A DNA stretch of 64,000 nt from Bacilli bacterium (GTDB taxonomy: Bacteria; Bacillota_I; Bacilli_A; ML615J-28; CAG-698): positions 279,879-343,878 of the forward strand of contig JBMNLY010000001.1 in NCBI GenBank assembly GCA_050953045.1. The letters are read 5' to 3'. Position numbers and translations under genes: made by a program. Positions 1,309 through 64,000 of the stretch are shown here, piece after piece. The notes below the pieces were generated by a model. That model had not been told where the DNA came from. It was given only the letters and a program-made list of their open reading frames with translations, and did no database searches. Each line of letters starts with the position of its first letter. Position 1 is the stretch's first letter.

Positions 1309-3480
1309 CCCGAGTTTGCCAGTTAGTATATAACTAATGCATATCAACTTATTTAATAATCTGCTAAATTCTATCAATTTCATGGCTTTTTAGCCTTTTT
1401 TTTAATATTTTTCTTGCATATGTATTATATCTGTGATATAATGTGTTTGTTAGTACATAAGTATATATGGAGGGTAAACCATGTTCGTTGAAGTGTTTAA
1501 TAATAACGGAATTAAGTATTTAAGACTAGTTGAAGGAATTAGGATTATTAATGATAAGGGAAAGCCTTCTGTTAGAAAGAAAGTTTTACTTAATATTGGT
1601 CCCTTATCTAGGTTTGATGACGGTAAACCCGATTACGTTAAACGTCTTAAAGAATCTTTTAAAAACGGGAAACCTTTAATTGATTCGCTTCTTCCTTTCG
1701 TTGATAAGAACAGTTTAAAAGAAGAATATAATATCTTCTTATCAGAAGGCAATCCCGATTGTATCGGGCATCCTAAACTTTATTCTCATTCTTTGCTTGA
1801 AAGAATCCTAGAAGAACTTGGGTTAACTAGCCTCATTTCAAGCTATAAAGCTCACACTAAAATCAAATTCGATTTATTAGGTTTTTTTAGATTGCTCGTT
1901 TATGGTAGAGTGCTGAGTCCCGCTTCTAAGTTTTCTACCGTAAAACAAAATGATGATTATTATGACAAAATTGTAAAAGAGGTTTATCCGTATAATATTT
2001 ATGATACACTTAACTTTATCTATAATTTTAAAAGGCAAATAATTAACAGAATTAATACTAACCTTATCAATAAAGCAAACAGAAAGAATAATTTTATCTT
2101 TTACGATGTTACTAACTTCTTCTTTGAAATAGAAGAAAATGATGAAGATATTGAAGAAAACGGTGAAGTAATTAAAGGAATCAGAAAAAGAGGAGTAAGT
2201 AAAGAATTTAGACCGCAGCCGATTGTTCAAATGGGTTTATTTATGGATGAGGAAGGTATGCCTATATCGATTGAAATCTTTCCGGGAAATACCCTTGATC
2301 ATCTAACGGTTAATACAGCTCTTGCTAAGAATATTGATAATGTTATAAATTCTAGATATATCTTTGTTGGAGACAGAGGAATATGTAATTATAAAACTAT
2401 ATGCCATCTAATAGATCGCAATAAAGGCTACATCTTTAGTAGAAGTATTAAGAAAAGTACTGATGAAGAAAAAAACTGGATTATTGATGAAAATGATTAT
2501 ATAAAACTAAATCAGAATTTTAAATACAAATCTAGAATAGTAAAAAAGACCGTTAAAGATGAAAATGGAGTTAGAAGGGAGATAGTAGAAAAGGTCGTTT
2601 CTTATTGGAGTAAAAATTTCTATAATAGGGAGTTTGCGGAAAACAAATCTTTTCTAGAATTCCTAGAAAAACTTATTAAGTCCCCCGCTAACTTTAGAGT
2701 ATCTAGAACTCAAGCAAAAAGCATAAAAGCATTTTTAAAGAAGGATTTGTTGAACTCTATTACTGGTGAAGTTATTAATTCATCCGAGTTAAAAGCCATA
2801 ATTGACGAGAAAAAAATAGAAGAATATAAAAAATTTATGGGTTATTACCAAATAGTAACATCTGAACTAGATATGGATGATTTAGAAGTAATAGAAAAAT
2901 ATCATGGTTTATCTCAAATCGAAAACCAATTTCGAATTATGAAAAGCGATTTGCAAACAAGACCTATTTACGTAAGAAATAAAGAACATATTGAAGCTCA
3001 TTTGATTGTTTGTATGATTGCGCTGCTAATCATAAGAATAATTCAAAAGAATATTGTAGACGGAAAACACGTACCGATAAAACATAAAAACAATAGAAGT
3101 TTAGACTGGCAAATGGGATTAACCGGAGAGAGAATTCAAAGGGCACTAAACAAATGGACAATCGATAAACTACCGGGAGATTATTATAGATTTAATAATT
3201 TAGATGATCCGGATTTAAAACTTATACTGGATACATTTAATATTGAAATACCAGTAAAATTGTTTAGAAAAATGGAATTAAAGAACATCAAAACAAAAAT
3301 AAAAATATTTAATTAGTATATAATATTAGTACATATTCTCAAAAACACATCTTATGAAATAAACATAAAAACACTATAAAAGTAAACAAAAATAGCATAA
3401 AACATGTAAAAACAATAGTTTTTTAAAGGAATCCCCTTTTTCAAGGAGACTTTCTACTTTCACAAAGTGGCAAACTCGGG
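1309..3480 (+). mobile_element. IS1634-family element, complete copy 2 (2172 bp)
   Basis: IRL CCCGAGTTTGCCA at 1309, IRR TGGCAAACTCGGG ending 3480; single 611-aa transposase; flanked by 314-bp direct repeats. Confidence 0.9.
1481..3316 (+). CDS. IS1634-family transposase
   Basis: Motifs FYDVTNFFFE, G.SKEFRPQPIVQMGL, VGDRG, YH.L.QIE.QFRIMKSDL.TRPIYV....HIEAH; RBS GGAGG. Confidence 0.9.
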   Translation: MFVEVFNNNGIKYLRLVEGIRIINDKGKPSVRKKVLLNIGPLSRFDDGKPDYVKRLKESFKNGKPLIDSLLPFVDKNSLKEEYNIFLSEGNPDCIGHPKLYSHSLLERILEELGLTSLISSYKAHTKIKFDLLGFFRLLVYGRVLSPASKFSTVKQNDDYYDKIVKEVYPYNIYDTLNFIYNFKRQIINRINTNLINKANRKNNFIFYDVTNFFFEIEENDEDIEENGEVIKGIRKRGVSKEFRPQPIVQMGLFMDEEGMPISIEIFPGNTLDHLTVNTALAKNIDNVINSRYIFVGDRGICNYKTICHLIDRNKGYIFSRSIKKSTDEEKNWIIDENDYIKLNQNFKYKSRIVKKTVKDENGVRREIVEKVVSYWSKNFYNREFAENKSFLEFLEKLIKSPANFRVSRTQAKSIKAFLKKDLLNSITGEVINSSELKAIIDEKKIEEYKKFMGYYQIVTSELDMDDLEVIEKYHGLSQIENQFRIMKSDLQTRPIYVRNKEHIEAHLIVCMIALLIIRIIQKNIVDGKHVPIKHKNNRSLDWQMGLTGERIQRALNKWTIDKLPGDYYRFNNLDDPDLKLILDTFNIEIPVKLFRKMELKNIKTKIKIFN

Positions 3481-3794
3481 TTATAACATAATAATACAAT
3501 TATTTCCGGGTTTTGTCGAAATATATAACAATAATAAAGTCTCAAAGATAAAAAAAGCTACTTCCAAAAATGTTATGATACTCTTAAAGTAGACAGTGAA
3601 TTAAAATAAAGTAATTCATTATCTATTTTAGGAGTATTTTTAATATGGGACGAAAAAGCAAATTTAGTAAAGAACTTAAAATTAAGGCTTGCTTGGATTA
3701 TATATCGGGTGTTAGGAGCGTATCACAAATAAGTGATGATTTACAAGTGTATAAAAAAACTGTATATAGGTGGGTTAATTCATATAGAGTACAT
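3481..3794 (+). repeat. 314-bp direct repeat, copy B
   Basis: Same sequence as 995..1308. Confidence 0.9.
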
Positions 3795-4307
3795 GGTCAA
3801 AGTATATTCGATAATAAACCAAGAAACAAATCGTATTCAAAAGAATTAAAACTTCAAGTAGTAAAAGAGTATTTAAGTGGTGAAGGCTCTCATGAATCAC
3901 TTGCTTTAAAATATAATATTTCATGTGATGGTATAGTAACTCAATGGATAAAATTGTATAATAGTGGTAAGGAAATTAAGGATTATAATCCTAAGGGGGA
4001 GGTATACACTATGAAAGCACGCCGTACCACATTTGAAGAAAGATTAGAAATAGTTAAATTCGTATTAGATAACAATAGAAACTATAAGCTAGCTGCAGAG
4101 AAATATTTATTGCCATATAGCTTAATCTACAACTGGACAAACAAATACTTAAAGTATGGTGAAGATAGTCTAAAGTACCAAAAGAAAGGACCGAGGCCAA
4201 AAGACTTTATTCCAGATGACCTCTCAGAAAAAGATAGATTGCTTAGAGAGAACGAACTCTTAAGACGTCAACTGGATTATGCACAGCTTGAGAATCAAGT
4301 TCTTTAA
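3645..4307 (+). CDS. IS3 transposase OrfA (tandem HTH); stops at TAA just before the slippery site
   Basis: Repeated HTH units (YSKELKL.VV, TFEERLEIV); copy 2 has AAA in place of this TAA. Confidence 0.85.
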   Translation: MGRKSKFSKELKIKACLDYISGVRSVSQISDDLQVYKKTVYRWVNSYRVHGQSIFDNKPRNKSYSKELKLQVVKEYLSGEGSHESLALKYNISCDGIVTQWIKLYNSGKEIKDYNPKGEVYTMKARRTTFEERLEIVKFVLDNNRNYKLAAEKYLLPYSLIYNWTNKYLKYGEDSLKYQKKGPRPKDFIPDDLSEKDRLLRENELLRRQLDYAQLENQVL

Positions 4308-4405
4308 AAAAAAGAACAATTAGAAAGACAAGCAGAATTACAAAGGTTAGGCAGGAAGAAACGTACCTAACAATTGATTATTTCAAAGATTTAGGCCATC
4401 CGATT

Positions 4406-5224
4406 ATGGTTTTATGCGATATTCTAGAGATTCCACGTAGTTCTTACTACAAGTGGAAAAATAGATCTAAGCCGAAAAAAGAGACTCAAGATGAAGAAAT
4501 CTGTAATCTAATTTTAGAATATGATAAGACCTTCCATCATATTCTAGGCTACCGTAGAATGACGATGTTCATTAATCACTTTAACCGAACAGACTATAGC
4601 GTTGGCTATATTCATAGGCTCATGAAGATCTTAGGAGTAAAAGCAAAGATTCGCAGATGTAGACCAGGATACAGAAAATCTAAACCTGAATATACAGCTG
4701 AAAATATATTAGCTAGGGATTTCAGTGCTGCTAAGCCTAATGAAAAATGGTTATCAGATGTGACTGAATTCAAGATCATTGGTCAAAAACAAAAACTATT
4801 TTTGTGTGCAATATTTGATTTATATGACAATAGTATCATTGCGTACAAGATGAGCACAAGAAACGATAACAAGCTTGTCTTTGATACATTTGATCTTGCA
4901 ATTAAGAAGCATCCTAATGCAAAACCAATATTTCATAGTGATAGAGGTTATCAATATACATCAATCGGTTTCAAAACAAAGATTAAAAAACAAGGAATTA
5001 TTCAAAGCATGAGCAGGGTTGGTAAGTGTATTGATAATGGCCCAATGGAAGCATTCTGGGGAATAATCAAATCAGAAATGTATTATTTAAATAAGTTTTA
5101 CAATTTAGAAGACTTAAAACAAGCGATTATTAATTATATAAACTTTTATAATCATAAGCGATTACAAGGTAAATTAAAATGCTTGCCTCCGATAGAATAT
5201 CGAAAACAAGCATTAATAGCTTAA
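4406..5224 (+). CDS. IS3 transposase OrfB (rve DDE domain)
   Basis: W.SDVTEF, HSDRGYQY, SRVGKCIDNGPMEAFW motifs. Confidence 0.95.
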   Translation: MVLCDILEIPRSSYYKWKNRSKPKKETQDEEICNLILEYDKTFHHILGYRRMTMFINHFNRTDYSVGYIHRLMKILGVKAKIRRCRPGYRKSKPEYTAENILARDFSAAKPNEKWLSDVTEFKIIGQKQKLFLCAIFDLYDNSIIAYKMSTRNDNKLVFDTFDLAIKKHPNAKPIFHSDRGYQYTSIGFKTKIKKQGIIQSMSRVGKCIDNGPMEAFWGIIKSEMYYLNKFYNLEDLKQAIINYINFYNHKRLQGKLKCLPPIEYRKQALIA

Positions 5225-7000: not shown

Positions 7001-7975
7001 CTACTCCAAGATCCGACTCGCTCTTTCAAGCAAAGCCTCAGGAATTGAAATTCCGATTTCATCTAATTGTTTTTTATTAATCACCAAATCATATTCAGAC
7101 AAACCTACGGAAGGAATATCTTTTGGGTTGATGCCGTCTTTTAGTATTTTAACCGCCATTTCGGCTGTTAATCTACCCAATTCATAATAGTTTACCCCAT
7201 ATGTAATCGTACCGCCGGCATCAACAACATTAGGTTCACCTACAATGGCCGGAATCTTTTTTTCGTTTATTATATCTTTAATAACTCCCATTGCTCCGGC
7301 GATTGCATTATCAGTCGGAATATAGAAAGCATCTACCTGCAATGCTAGTTGATTCGCAACCGGTTGCAAATCATTAATTGTCTGGATTGTTTTTACAAAA
7401 ACTTCTAAACCTGCTTTTTCAGCTTCTTCTTTCGCAACATTAGCCTGTAATTCCGAATTAGGTTCGCTTCCAGTATAAATAATGCCAAGTTTGGTAGCAT
7501 TCGGAAGCATTTCCTTCACCAAAGAAATTTGTTCTTTAATCGGATTCATATCATTAGTTCCGGTAACATTTCCGCCCGGAGCTTCATTACTCTTAATCAA
7601 TTTCGCATCAACAGGATCGGTTACAGCAGTAAAGAGAATCGGGGTGTTTTTACCTTGATCCTTTGCTTCATTAACAACTGCGCTTGCTGCAGGGGTTGCA
7701 ATAGCTAAAATCAAATCAGATTTCCTAACCAATTCTTTAGCTTGCAAAGACATAGTCGGAGCGTCCGTTTGCGGGTTTAAAATCGTAATATTAATATTTT
7801 CGCCCTGAACATAACCTGCTTCTTCAAGCACATCAATAAAGCCTTGCCGGGCTTCAGTTAAAGCATTATGTTCAACATATTGTAAGATTCCAATTTCAAT
7901 TAAATCGCCTTTGTTACATCCTACTAAAACAATACCAAAGATAAATAATAAAATAAATCCAATAAACTTTTTCAT
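7001..7975 (-). CDS. ABC transporter substrate-binding lipoprotein (Trp/Tyr-binding family)
   Basis: Lipobox LVGC; IGILQYVEH.AL, AIATPAA, FTAVTDP, NVTGT.D, PTDN. Confidence 0.9.
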   Translation of the reverse strand: MKKFIGFILLFIFGIVLVGCNKGDLIEIGILQYVEHNALTEARQGFIDVLEEAGYVQGENINITILNPQTDAPTMSLQAKELVRKSDLILAIATPAASAVVNEAKDQGKNTPILFTAVTDPVDAKLIKSNEAPGGNVTGTNDMNPIKEQISLVKEMLPNATKLGIIYTGSEPNSELQANVAKEEAEKAGLEVFVKTIQTINDLQPVANQLALQVDAFYIPTDNAIAGAMGVIKDIINEKKIPAIVGEPNVVDAGGTITYGVNYYELGRLTAEMAVKILKDGINPKDIPSVGLSEYDLVINKKQLDEIGISIPEALLERASRILE

Positions 7976-7994
7976 TTTTCTCCTCCTTATTAAT

Positions 7995-8026
7995 AAAAAA
8001 TGTGTTATTACTTAGTAATAACACAT
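7995..8026 (-). terminator. Intrinsic terminator in the transporter 5' leader (attenuator)
   Basis: Long perfect inverted repeat ATGTGTTATTACT/AGTAATAACACAT followed by a T tract on the minus strand, just upstream of the RBS. Confidence 0.85.
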
Positions 8027-8148
8027 GAAGTATCTTATATTTCCACTGTTATTACCTTCCATCTATTATCTTTAATAGACGCCATGTAATAACACTGGAT
8101 TTGTTTATGGCTTACTTTCCAACAGAAAAAGCCAAGAAAGAAGTGTTT

Positions 8149-8220
8149 TTAAACATGACATCCTCTTGGAAAGTAATAATAGTAATAAAATTTTACGTTA
8201 ACAGAAACAAAAGGTTTCAT
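8149..8220 (-). CDS. Tyr/Phe-rich leader peptide MKPFVSVNVKFYYYYYFPRGCHV (23 aa)
   Basis: GGAG RBS 8 nt before ATG; codons TTT TAT TAC TAT TAT TAC TTT; lies between promoter and attenuator terminator. Confidence 0.8.
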   Translation of the reverse strand: MKPFVSVNVKFYYYYYFPRGCHV

Positions 8221-8250
8221 AGACATATCTCCGTAAATCTTATTAATGAA

Positions 8251-8279
8251 ATTATATCATTTACTATATGAAAAAGCAA
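8251..8279 (-). promoter_or_regulatory. SigA-type promoter of the leader/ABC operon
   Basis: TTGCTT-17 bp-TATAAT with TG extension. Confidence 0.75.
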
Positions 8280-8305
8280 TGAAAAGTTTCGAAAAAACGC
8301 TTACT

Positions 8306-9921
8306 TATGAGTATATTATGATAATTTCATATTAAGTTATATTATGATTATTTCATTACTAAATAAATCACTAATAACTAAATAAGTAGTACTTACTAAA
8401 TAAATATATCTATAAGGGCCGCCATTTTCCAAAATTTTCATTTTCCTACCTCTTTTGATATAATTCGTTATATCAGGAGGTAATATATGAGAAAGGTAGA
8501 GTTAAGAATGAACGAACAAATCAAGTACGATATTATTAAACGTGTCGCTAATAATGAAATTTCTGTAAGAAGAGCAGCCGTTAAACTAGGCGTTACCATT
8601 CGAACCGTTTATAACTTAATCAAAACCTACAGAACCAAAGGTAAAGCCGGATTCATCCACGGCAACCGTGGTAGAAAACCATCTACTACCATAAGTAAAG
8701 AGGTAACCGAAAAAATTCTATCGCTTTATAAGAACACTTATTATCAAGCTAACTTTAAACATTTTCTAGATCTTTTGAAAGAAAGAGAAAATATTGAAGT
8801 TTCATATTACTACCTGTATAAACTACTTAGTAAAGAACGTTTTATTTCCCCTAAATGTACTAAGAAGACCTTAAGAAGAATTAATAAAGAATTAAGCCAA
8901 AAATTAAAATCTAACGCTAAATTAACTCAAGCAGAAAAAGATTATATCGCTGCCACCAATCTTCAAGATCCATCTAAAGCACATCCCAGAAAACCTCGAG
9001 CTAAATATGCCGGAGAACTTATCCTAATGGATGCATCGGAGCATGTCTGGTTTGCCGATTATAAAACTCACCTGCATTTATGCTTAGATGATGCTTCAGG
9101 ACAGATTGTAGGGGCATATTTCGACTCACAAGAGACTTTGAAGGGCTATTACAACACTTTGTATCAAGTGTTAACCAAGTACGGTATACCGGCTATTATC
9201 TTAACCGATAATCGTAGTATTTTTAAAGGTAAGGGAATAAAAAATCCTTCTGCTGATGAGAAGGACATGCATACACAATTTGGTTATGCCTGCCATCAGC
9301 TAGGAATCGAACTTCGAACAACTTCCATACCCCAATCCAAAGGACGTATTGAAAGAATGTTTCAAACCCTTCAAAGTCGGTTGATCCTAGAACTGAAATT
9401 AGCAGGCATAACAAGTATACAGGAAGCTAACAAATTTCTTGAAGACTATATCAAGAAATTTAATCAGCAATTCGCTGTACAACTTGATTATACCAAATCC
9501 GTATATGATACGCAATTAACTTCAGAAAAAATCAATTACACTTTGGCGGTCATAAGCAAGCGTATTGTTGATAACGGAAGTTCGATAAAATATAAAAACA
9601 AATATTATCAGTTTTACCTGTCAGGTAGTTTAGTAGCAATCAAACCTAAAACAAGATGCTACGTTTTAGAAGCATTTGATGGATCATTACTGGCCTCAAT
9701 CGGCGAAGAAATTTATGAACTACATGAATTGGAATCCAATTATAAAGTATCCAAAATCTTCGATCTTGAAGAACCAAAAAAACCTAAATATAGAGGCCAC
9801 AAACCTAAAGATTGTCATCCTTGGAAATACTTTAAATATAAGAGAAAGTCAAAACGTATTACTGCTTAAAACTGTAAGAATGTTTACAGTTTTTTAGTGA
9901 AAAAATCATTATATATTGACA
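8306..9921 (+). mobile_element. IS1202-type (ISNCY) element with long TSD
   Basis: Imperfect IRs TATGAGTATATTATGATAATTTCA / TGTCAATATATAATGATTTTTTCA; flanking repeats TGAAAAGTTTCGA6-7CGCTTACT at 8280-8305 and 9922-9948. Confidence 0.85.
8487..9869 (+). CDS. ISNCY/IS1202-group transposase
   Basis: N-terminal HTH (HGNRGRKP), MDAS.H.W, DDASG, TDNRS, PQSKGRIERMF.TLQSRL, HPW tail. Confidence 0.9.
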   Translation: MRKVELRMNEQIKYDIIKRVANNEISVRRAAVKLGVTIRTVYNLIKTYRTKGKAGFIHGNRGRKPSTTISKEVTEKILSLYKNTYYQANFKHFLDLLKERENIEVSYYYLYKLLSKERFISPKCTKKTLRRINKELSQKLKSNAKLTQAEKDYIAATNLQDPSKAHPRKPRAKYAGELILMDASEHVWFADYKTHLHLCLDDASGQIVGAYFDSQETLKGYYNTLYQVLTKYGIPAIILTDNRSIFKGKGIKNPSADEKDMHTQFGYACHQLGIELRTTSIPQSKGRIERMFQTLQSRLILELKLAGITSIQEANKFLEDYIKKFNQQFAVQLDYTKSVYDTQLTSEKINYTLAVISKRIVDNGSSIKYKNKYYQFYLSGSLVAIKPKTRCYVLEAFDGSLLASIGEEIYELHELESNYKVSKIFDLEEPKKPKYRGHKPKDCHPWKYFKYKRKSKRITA

Positions 9922-63956: not shown

Positions 63957-64000
63957 TAAAAAGCCTTAAGAAGAATCTTAAGGACGAAAATTTCCGCGGT
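63957..64000 (-). promoter_or_regulatory. 3' end of the valS T-box riboswitch (antiterminator/terminator), cut by window edge
   Basis: ACCGCG...CGTCC antiterminator half overlapping terminator CCTTAAGA...TCTTAAGG-CTTTTT. Confidence 0.75.

Follow-up and report, generated by a model that had tools for sequence, protein, structure and literature searches.

A conserved tyrosine-codon leader that probably acts as a ribosome-mediated attenuator of an aromatic amino acid importer in Acholeplasmatales

The 64,000-nucleotide stretch of contig JBMNLY010000001.1 analysed here (the window, numbered from its first letter) carries on its minus strand an ATP-binding cassette (ABC) importer operon encoding a substrate-binding lipoprotein, a permease and an ATPase. 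The operon is preceded by a leader (8279-7976) that combines a short upstream open reading frame (uORF) rich in Tyr codons with a series of competing hairpins and an intrinsic terminator (Table 1). An initial annotation of this DNA had proposed a tRNA-Tyr leader-peptide attenuator at a place where homologous operons carry a T-box, and order-wide conservation, covariation, the geometry of the ribosome footprint and gene context now all support that reading. The leader is therefore likely to be a ribosome-mediated transcription attenuator that senses the charging of tRNA-Tyr, perhaps together with that of tRNA-Phe, and acts on a tyrosine or aromatic amino acid importer. The promoter, the ribosome-binding site (RBS), the 23-codon uORF with its five Tyr codons, the pairings, the terminator and the RBS of the binding-protein gene all lie where the initial annotation had placed them. 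The binding protein matches PF04392 with 260.6 bits against a cut-off of 25.9; its score against the TrpX equivalog NF041285, 291.3 bits, is below the 390-bit cut-off of that model.

The promoter is missing from the listing of a consensus scan because its -35 hexamer agrees with the consensus at only three of six positions, and the combination of an extended -10 with a TTGCNN -35 is also present upstream in relatives. A second ATG at 8226 follows the GGAG after merely 2 nt and is missing in the closest relative (L002). Downstream of the Shine-Dalgarno (SD) sequence and start codon, the end of the Tyr/Phe run (8176-8166) is complementary to 8122-8112, and 8055-8047 has two possible partners, 8095-8086 and the 5' arm of the terminator. 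The terminator scan found one site where 0.2 were expected. The whole leader folds with -72.4 kcal/mol compared with -46.1 +/- 4.6 kcal/mol for 200 shuffled sequences (z = -5.78), none of which folds as well. These arms would form a chain of five mutually exclusive elements, namely P1, segment 2:d, d:d', d':e and e:e' (the terminator); in P1 the end of the Tyr run and the adjoining CCAAG would pair with CUUGG / GGAAAGUA and enclose segment 2.

Table 1. Features of the leader and of the operon downstream (window coordinates)
Feature	Position	Strand	Details
Promoter	8279-8251	-	-35 TTGCTT 8279-8274; 17-nt spacer; extended -10 TGaTATAAT 8259-8251
Shine-Dalgarno GGAG	8232-8229	-	8 nt ahead of uORF ATG 8220
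Leader uORF	8220-8149	-	23 codons + UAA stop 8151-8149
Tyr codons (five consecutive)	8187-8173	-	Phe codons either side, 8190-8188 and 8172-8170
P1 'lock' hairpin (putative)	8176-8112	-	5' arm 8176-8164 = last Tyr codon + Phe codon + CCAAGA
P1 3' partners	8137-8132 and/or 8120-8112	-	UCUUGG 8137-8132 and/or GGAAAGUAA 8120-8112; P1 encloses segment 2
Segment 2 (uORF 3' end including stop codon)	8162-8143	-	Partner is arm d with its flank
Conserved CUUUUUC	8131-8125	-	Directly after P1 inner stem
Anti-antiterminator hairpin d:d' (putative)	8098-8043	-	Arm d 8098-8086; apical stem 8080-8061; arm d' 8055-8043
Antiterminator d':e (putative)	8056-8014	-	d' 8056-8047 with terminator 5' arm e 8023-8014, 10 pairs (forced fold)
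Intrinsic terminator	8026-7995	-	Stem 8026-8015 with 8011-8000 (12 pairs), loop 8014-8012, U run 7999-7995
Lipoprotein substrate-binding protein, PF04392	7975-7001	-	RBS GGAGG 7986-7982; E = 2.2e-77
ABC permease, PF02653	6994-6086	-	Pfam family
ABC ATPase, PF00005	6093-5296	-	Pfam family

The leader matches none of the catalogued RNA families. No family in Rfam 15 reached its gathering score anywhere in the 64,000-nt window, and at E <= 10 the region 7800-8500 gave nine chance-level rows, which include neither a T-box nor an amino-acid leader. The initial annotation had noted that no T-box was visible, which agrees with the Rfam scan both at the gathering score and at E <= 10; the same T-box model finds nine matches elsewhere in the genome. 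Stem I, the specifier loop and the T-box sequence are absent from the window leader, as is a match to RF00230. The curated Rfam amino-acid leader families (the Trp, His, Phe, Leu, Thr and leu/phe leaders) do not match it at either threshold. The features that define a leader-peptide attenuator are present: an open reading frame with an SD sequence and start codon, a run of Tyr codons, and a terminator with a competing antiterminator. Selection of the structure by ribosome position is seen in the footprint geometry and in masked folds, and concerns geometry rather than ribosome occupancy.

Homologues of the binding protein in 40 related genomes provided 26 upstream regions, 23 of which contain a Tyr-rich uORF with an SD sequence and ATG together with the same hairpins (the exceptions are L012, L025 and L027). 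The conserved poly-Tyr uORFs and covarying stems that the initial annotation had asked for at orthologous operons are thus found, with covariation in the helix between segment 2 and arm d. A covariance model (R1) extending from the Tyr run to arm d' (129 positions, 22 pairs; built from relatives, with the uORF start excluded) identifies one copy in the window's own genome and matches 52 of 105 Acholeplasmatales genomes, including 31 of the 55 genomes from one family and 20 of the 49 genomes from the other. There is one match per genome except in G011, where tandem binding-protein genes (L006 and L047, G011:C3) are each preceded by a copy of the leader. Outside the order, R1 matches one of 137 genomes in a class sample, and this genome, G129, is also the only match outside the order among the 150 genomes scored in a phylum sample; its leader (L089) has a 28-codon uORF and precedes a permease gene rather than a binding-protein gene. 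Five homologous loci read outside the order comprise two with T-box-like leaders and three without a leader. A survey of 30 aroB loci revealed the leader at two (L102, 49 bits; L103, 27 bits, E = 0.071) and two further rows at chance level, and the upstream regions of the aroB loci L104-L108, inspected by eye, show no leader. As a separate observation, the binding-protein locus L012 of genome G003 retains the hairpins and the terminator and lacks the Tyr-rich uORF.

Every fetched R1 match is accompanied by an in-frame uORF of 18-33 codons beginning with ATG. The uORF was found by script at 50 of 52 loci, and the other two, which represent one place in G003, were identified by eye. Among the 55 unique leaders that make up the comparative set, the start codon is AUG in all 55 and a four-nucleotide SD match lies within -17 to -4 of the ATG in 49, while frames +1 and +2 are stop-free in just three and eight leaders, respectively. 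The peptide is not conserved outside the aromatic run: the first eight residues form 53 distinct strings, and the N-terminal codons drift while the Tyr run remains in frame. Within a seven-residue aromatic block the leaders average 4.64 Tyr and 1.75 Phe residues and have no Trp; at least four Tyr residues are present in 47 of the 55, and Tyr outnumbers Phe in 47. The CCAAG that follows is kept as RNA and not as peptide, since it is read in another frame in several lineages and gives FQE or FQV instead of FPR. In a variant represented by L030 and L041, the uORF (in L030) reads through the 3' arm of P1 to a UGA stop.

These patterns bear on three alternative explanations of the leader. Conservation of the uORF and its good SD sequence could mean that the uORF is simply a conserved gene for a small protein, that an ordinary terminator follows it and that the transporter is expressed from a separate promoter; this has very little to recommend it, given that the peptide beyond the aromatic run is not conserved, that the alternative helices covary and that the gap between the terminator and the binding-protein RBS is only 18-24 nt in the window, with no promoter-like hexamers read in it and none on that strand in the promoter scan. 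A switch that operates without a ribosome and responds to a protein, tRNA or small ligand, the uORF being incidental, would be compatible with the repeated UAUUAC and GUAAUAA cores, which could be repeated binding sites, and with a cascade that folds well in the ribosome-free state. It is nevertheless improbable in view of the invariant AUG, the widespread SD sequence, the mostly closed alternative frames, the Tyr run that stays in frame as the preceding codons change, the position of the stop codon within segment 2 in most leaders and the lack of a match to any Rfam family, the T-box included. The third possibility is a TnaC-like arrest in which the nascent peptide and free tyrosine, and not the supply of tRNA-Tyr, stall the ribosome. 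Pro-containing arrest peptides exist, and a conserved aromatic run followed by Pro-Arg occurs in many of the leaders, but the Pro-Arg pair is not retained where CCAAG encodes Gln-Glu or Gln-Val, and induction by the amino acid would have the wrong sign for an importer and a biosynthetic operon, so that this explanation is very improbable.

The pairing scheme of the initial annotation was correct as to the complementarities and lacked the relay that would connect the position of the ribosome to the antiterminator. That relay is provided by a helix between 8162-8143 and 8095-8078, which was first seen in many relatives when transcripts cut before the 3' arm of the terminator were folded with the Tyr codons masked as if by a ribosome. 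In the window it consists of 8162-8153 paired with 8087-8078 and 8147-8143 paired with 8095-8091, with the stop codon in an internal loop. Direct pairing of 8122-8112 with arm d, considered as a candidate for the same role, amounts by eye to only 4-5 base pairs and was dropped in favour of segment 2:d.

For 51 leaders, the duplex of segment 2 with its own partner has a mean energy of -15.65 kcal/mol, compared with -9.66 +/- 0.43 kcal/mol for permuted partners, and none of 10,000 permutations reaches the observed value; since the leaders are kin and not independent, this P-value measures the specificity of pairing and not a number of independent events. Nine of the 51, with a segment 2:d duplex weaker than -10 kcal/mol, were left out of the counts of pair types and footprints, leaving 42. 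In these, positions +1 to +7 past the core of arm d are paired in 28-40 leaders, with 4-6 pair types at each position. In a plain MAFFT alignment made without regard to segment 2:d, 67.9% of the cells pair, compared with 60.8 +/- 1.5% after shuffling (0 of 500 shuffles reach the observed value), and with a slid partner the pairing is 25-53%. Nine pairs of the helix on this alignment have changed on both sides, a number reached by 7 of 500 shuffles.

The inner stem of P1 pairs in 96.7% of cells, with two pairs changed on both sides. Its outer stem pairs in 71% of cells on an ill-fitting alignment, and matched changes are visible by eye in L032 and L033. The core stem of d:d' is paired in 97.8% of cells. 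The d':e duplex is at or below -8 kcal/mol in 36 of 51 leaders, a count that is a floor given that the automatic choice of windows mis-set some of them, and its mean z-score is -3.0 relative to shuffled sequences. The terminator was found by script in 51 of the 55 leaders.

The position of segment 2 relative to the Tyr codons and the stop codon is consistent with control by the ribosome. For a footprint of -15 to +12, a ribosome whose A site is at the stop codon covers a mean of 93% of the paired bases of segment 2 in the 42 leaders, whereas one whose A site is at the last Tyr codon covers a mean of 12% of them. The segment 2:d helix mostly begins 9-13 nt past the last Tyr codon. When the window transcript is ended at 8078, the minimum free energy (MFE) structure contains segment 2:d under the stall mask, but not with a ribosome at the stop codon or in the ribosome-free state.

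These features suggest the following cycle. When tyrosine is scarce, a ribosome held on the Tyr codons would block P1 and leave segment 2 exposed just beyond its leading edge, where it could capture arm d as this emerges from the polymerase; d' would then be free to pair with e, the terminator would not form and the operon would be transcribed. When tyrosine is plentiful, the ribosome would proceed to the stop codon and cover segment 2, and after its release P1 would sequester the same segment, so that d:d' and then the terminator would form and transcription would end. A leader that is not translated would adopt the same off state. As a guess, the inner stem of P1 and the U run behind it could act as a pause site that lets the ribosome catch up with the polymerase. 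The motif for NusG-type pausing is TTNTTT, and it was considered for the conserved CUUUUUC; the run in the window is no longer than five T and is interrupted in L002, so that such a motif is not established. The nesting of segment 2 within P1 suggests that the switch depends on a ribosome being in place on the Tyr codons when d emerges, and not on tight coupling. The functional coupling that the initial annotation took to be implied is an inference. We infer translation, stalling, the kinetics and the role of the pause from elements, conservation, helix covariation and footprint geometry that were computed.

The identity of the amino acid is indicated by the genes that follow the leader and by the binding protein. 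Genome G003 has a copy of the leader, complete with a Tyr-rich uORF (L100, G003:C3:17000-28400), ahead of a six-gene operon comprising aroB, aroC, an aroE/aroK fusion, a 3-deoxy-D-arabino-heptulosonate 7-phosphate (DAHP) synthase gene, aroA and tyrA, and in G079 (L103) the leader precedes aroB. Among proteins of solved structure, the best homologue of the binding protein is CD0873 of Clostridioides difficile (PDB 6HNI; E = 9.9e-60), which is reported to bind tyrosine and to be stabilized by Tyr only, with Glu263 tied to the preference for Tyr and Tyr279 to the exclusion of Trp (PMC6816091). Glu247 and Tyr263 of the window protein align with these two residues, and Glu and Tyr occupy both positions in all 52 leader-linked proteins. 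Tyr263 is also the position of Gln284 in the Trp-binding SP1069, and the homologue under a Trp T-box (L025) has Val/Tyr and not Ala/Gln. Use of the pocket residues to discriminate Tyr from Phe was rejected, as Glu/Tyr is common to the homologues under Phe T-boxes. The pocket comparison supports an aromatic and Tyr-compatible substrate; the expectation of Tyr or Phe in the initial annotation fits both the homology to CD0873 and these residues, which do not separate the two.

Several observations weigh against a Tyr-sensing attenuator. The evidence is wholly computational. In an equilibrium test, in which whole leaders were folded with a 28-nt ribosome mask stepped over every codon, the terminator keeps a probability of about 0.9 or more at every mask position, the stall included, in most relatives, and one of 0.98 in the window, and a clear drop at the Tyr codons is present in only about seven of 25 leaders (L005, L011, L017, L018, L020, L021 and L024). 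The footprint-masked folds that the initial annotation had called for therefore gave a divided answer, with segment 2:d as the MFE structure at 8078 under the stall only and an equilibrium terminator probability that is mostly unmoved. For the window transcript extending to 8011, the state with d:d' (-47.9 kcal/mol) is favoured over the antiterminated one (-44.9 kcal/mol) by 3.0 kcal/mol, and the switch in the window must therefore be kinetic, by trapping; for L002 and L003 the MFE structure is itself antiterminated. Two leaders, L030 and L089, have stop codons far 3' of segment 2, which a ribosome at the stop would cover only to fractions of 0.17 and 0.21. Part of the conservation of the Tyr run may lie at the level of RNA, given that its core UAUUAC is common to arms d and e. 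Phe outnumbers Tyr in five of the 55 leaders (for example L032). Finally, Glu/Tyr pockets also occur in the proteins of L035 and L036, which have Phe T-boxes, and in those of L012, L034, L037 and L038.

Some of these points would also fit the same mechanism with Phe, or Tyr and Phe jointly, as the signal and with a general Tyr/Phe importer as the target. In most leaders the Tyr codons have Phe codons beside or among them. The T-boxes of the nearest homologues outside the order have UUC specifiers in L035 (47% identical; Rfam alignment) and, by eye, in L036; the Rfam alignment also gives UGG for L025 (35% identical), and L027 has a similar T-box by eye. Loss of a related C. difficile transporter is reported to have reduced the uptake of both Tyr and Phe (PMC5951980). 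Set against this are the excess of Tyr over Phe in most leaders, the Tyr-only stabilization of CD0873, and the G003 operon, which ends in tyrA and has no prephenate dehydratase among its six annotated genes. Moreover, the UUU before CCAAG belongs to the P1 stem and is therefore constrained as RNA. A Phe or joint signal is thus possible but rather unlikely, and Tyr is the best call, with joint sensing of Tyr and Phe as the alternative to it.

In its overall design the leader resembles known leader-peptide attenuators. Those of enterobacteria include the trpL, pheL/pheA and his leaders, of which the his leader has a multi-hairpin cascade. They share with the window leader an SD-ATG uORF containing tandem codons for the sensed amino acid, exclusive hairpins that end in a terminator, masking of a pro-antiterminator segment by a ribosome at the stop codon, and termination as the default without translation. 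The his leader, with several stacked alternatives, is the closest of them. The window leader differs in that it would sense Tyr, matches no Rfam leader family, has five layers, encloses the next segment within P1 rather than having the two side by side, occurs in Acholeplasmatales and has an ABC importer as its main target. RF00514 is named in PMC9413887.

The initial annotation considered ribosome-dependent amino acid attenuation to be described mainly in Proteobacteria and Actinobacteria; the present case is less exotic than was implied, since His and Leu examples have been reported in Firmicutes. Leader peptides that take the place of T-boxes are described there for His in the Bacillus cereus group (PMC2965389) and in Peptostreptococcaceae and Erysipelotrichales (PMC9413887), and for Leu as a Leu-rich attenuator peptide at ilv-leu of Staphylococcus aureus (PMC5794164). 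Like these, the window leader would represent ribosome-dependent attenuation in a low-GC Gram-positive lineage at a locus where relatives use T-boxes. It differs from them in the amino acid, in its unrelated sequence, in its distribution over two families of one order and in its control of uptake, with the addition of an aroB-led operon in two genomes. T-box leaders (RF00230) likewise read the charging of a specific tRNA through a terminator and antiterminator, and are found at homologous PF04392 transporters (L035 and L025); TrpXYZ of Streptococcus suis is reported to be under an experimentally supported Trp T-box (PMC9382623). The window leader would sense through the ribosome and not by direct binding of tRNA, and lacks Stem I, specifier loop and T-box sequence. 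As for the importer, CD0873 remains the best solved counterpart of the window protein, with the same Glu and Tyr, both of which are also found under Phe T-boxes.

A literature search for a Tyr leader peptide, or for this element, found none described, in a search that mostly excluded subscription journals and with the proviso that Additional file 6 of PMC9413887 may hold related leaders; a Tyr leader-peptide attenuator thus appears to be undescribed. On balance, the leaders probably represent an undescribed, order-wide family of Tyr-specific ribosome-mediated attenuators in Acholeplasmatales, forming a small Tyr regulon that includes uptake in about half of the genomes searched and an aroB-led operon in two, operating beside the tyrS T-box, and using a P1 lock that would make the outcome depend on a ribosome waiting at the Tyr codons and not on a tight race between ribosome and polymerase. 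They would be the first Tyr leader-peptide attenuators and the first leader-peptide attenuators in a Mollicutes-related lineage.

Two further features of the leader may be mentioned. The Tyr run (8187-8173) shares its UAUUAC core with arms d (8095-8086) and e (8023-8015), so that pairing with d' or e' is possible; this sharing may play a part in the switch or reflect the origin of the cascade. A cre-like box is present on the minus strand at 8305-8295, just 5' of the -35 hexamer. The cre-like motif [TA]GTAA[AG]A?[CT]G[CT]TT occurs in 30 of the 55 unique leaders, mostly 79-91 nt before the ATG of the uORF, and 10 of these 30 fit the stricter cre pattern TGNAANCGNNNNCW. The box may represent a second, protein-based layer of control, for which the CcpA/LacI type is suggested.

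The operon lies between insertion-sequence-like genes. An IS-type transposase gene with helix-turn-helix and rve domains (8487-9869, plus strand) lies just upstream of the leader, and two further genes of this kind flank the operon at 3645-5224 and 1481-3316 (both plus strand), which resemble transposases on inspection by eye. The insertion upstream of the leader seems to be recent, since the closest relative, G001, has other sequence upstream of the promoter. A gene for a D-Tyr-tRNA(Tyr) deacylase (PF02580; 10015-10461, minus strand) is one insertion element away from the leader. Its proximity to a Tyr leader is probably a coincidence, the neighbourhood not being kept in G001.

The nearest named relatives of the host are metagenome-assembled genomes of Acholeplasmatales and Acholeplasmataceae, and the DNA of the window recurs in metagenomes of the anaerobic-digester and biogas type. 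Small portions of it are also represented in two metatranscriptome runs, with contigs that cover the operon patchily. An RNA contig from one of them (X19) matches the leader at 8014-8193 with at least 90% identity and then continues into unlike sequence that resembles the terminator tail and RBS of a relative. This contig could stem from transcription past the terminator in a related organism, but it is weak evidence, since DNA carry-over is possible and an assembled contig does not display transcript ends or levels.

The genome itself has nine matches to the RF00230 T-box covariance model, eight of them above the family cut-off. Four precede tyrS, trpS, pheS and valS in the family search, with specifiers that read by eye as UAC, UGG, UUC and GUC. 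The valS T-box mentioned in the initial annotation is recovered as a 137-bit match upstream of valS (C1:343855-344070, equivalent to window position 63977 onward, minus strand) that crosses the end of the window. A T-box, at tyrS, and a leader peptide would thus read the same tRNA species within one genome.

The result is a comparative-genomics finding that involves a known mechanism and no new principle. It would add tyrosine to the amino acids sensed by leader-peptide attenuation and provide a new, testable RNA family with 55 unique examples whose alternative helices covary, and it offers a regulatory argument for naming the substrate in a poorly annotated clade of transporters. Translation is largely uncoupled from transcription in Bacillus subtilis. 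Attenuation that depends on the ribosome requires a ribosome near the polymerase, and an order-wide case in Acholeplasmatales bears on the question of which Gram-positive bacteria couple the two processes. Coupling of transcription and translation within the cell has been described for Mycoplasma pneumoniae (10.1101/2020.02.28.970111). If the proposed mechanism is true, these leaders would constitute a natural test of transcription-translation coupling in Acholeplasmatales.

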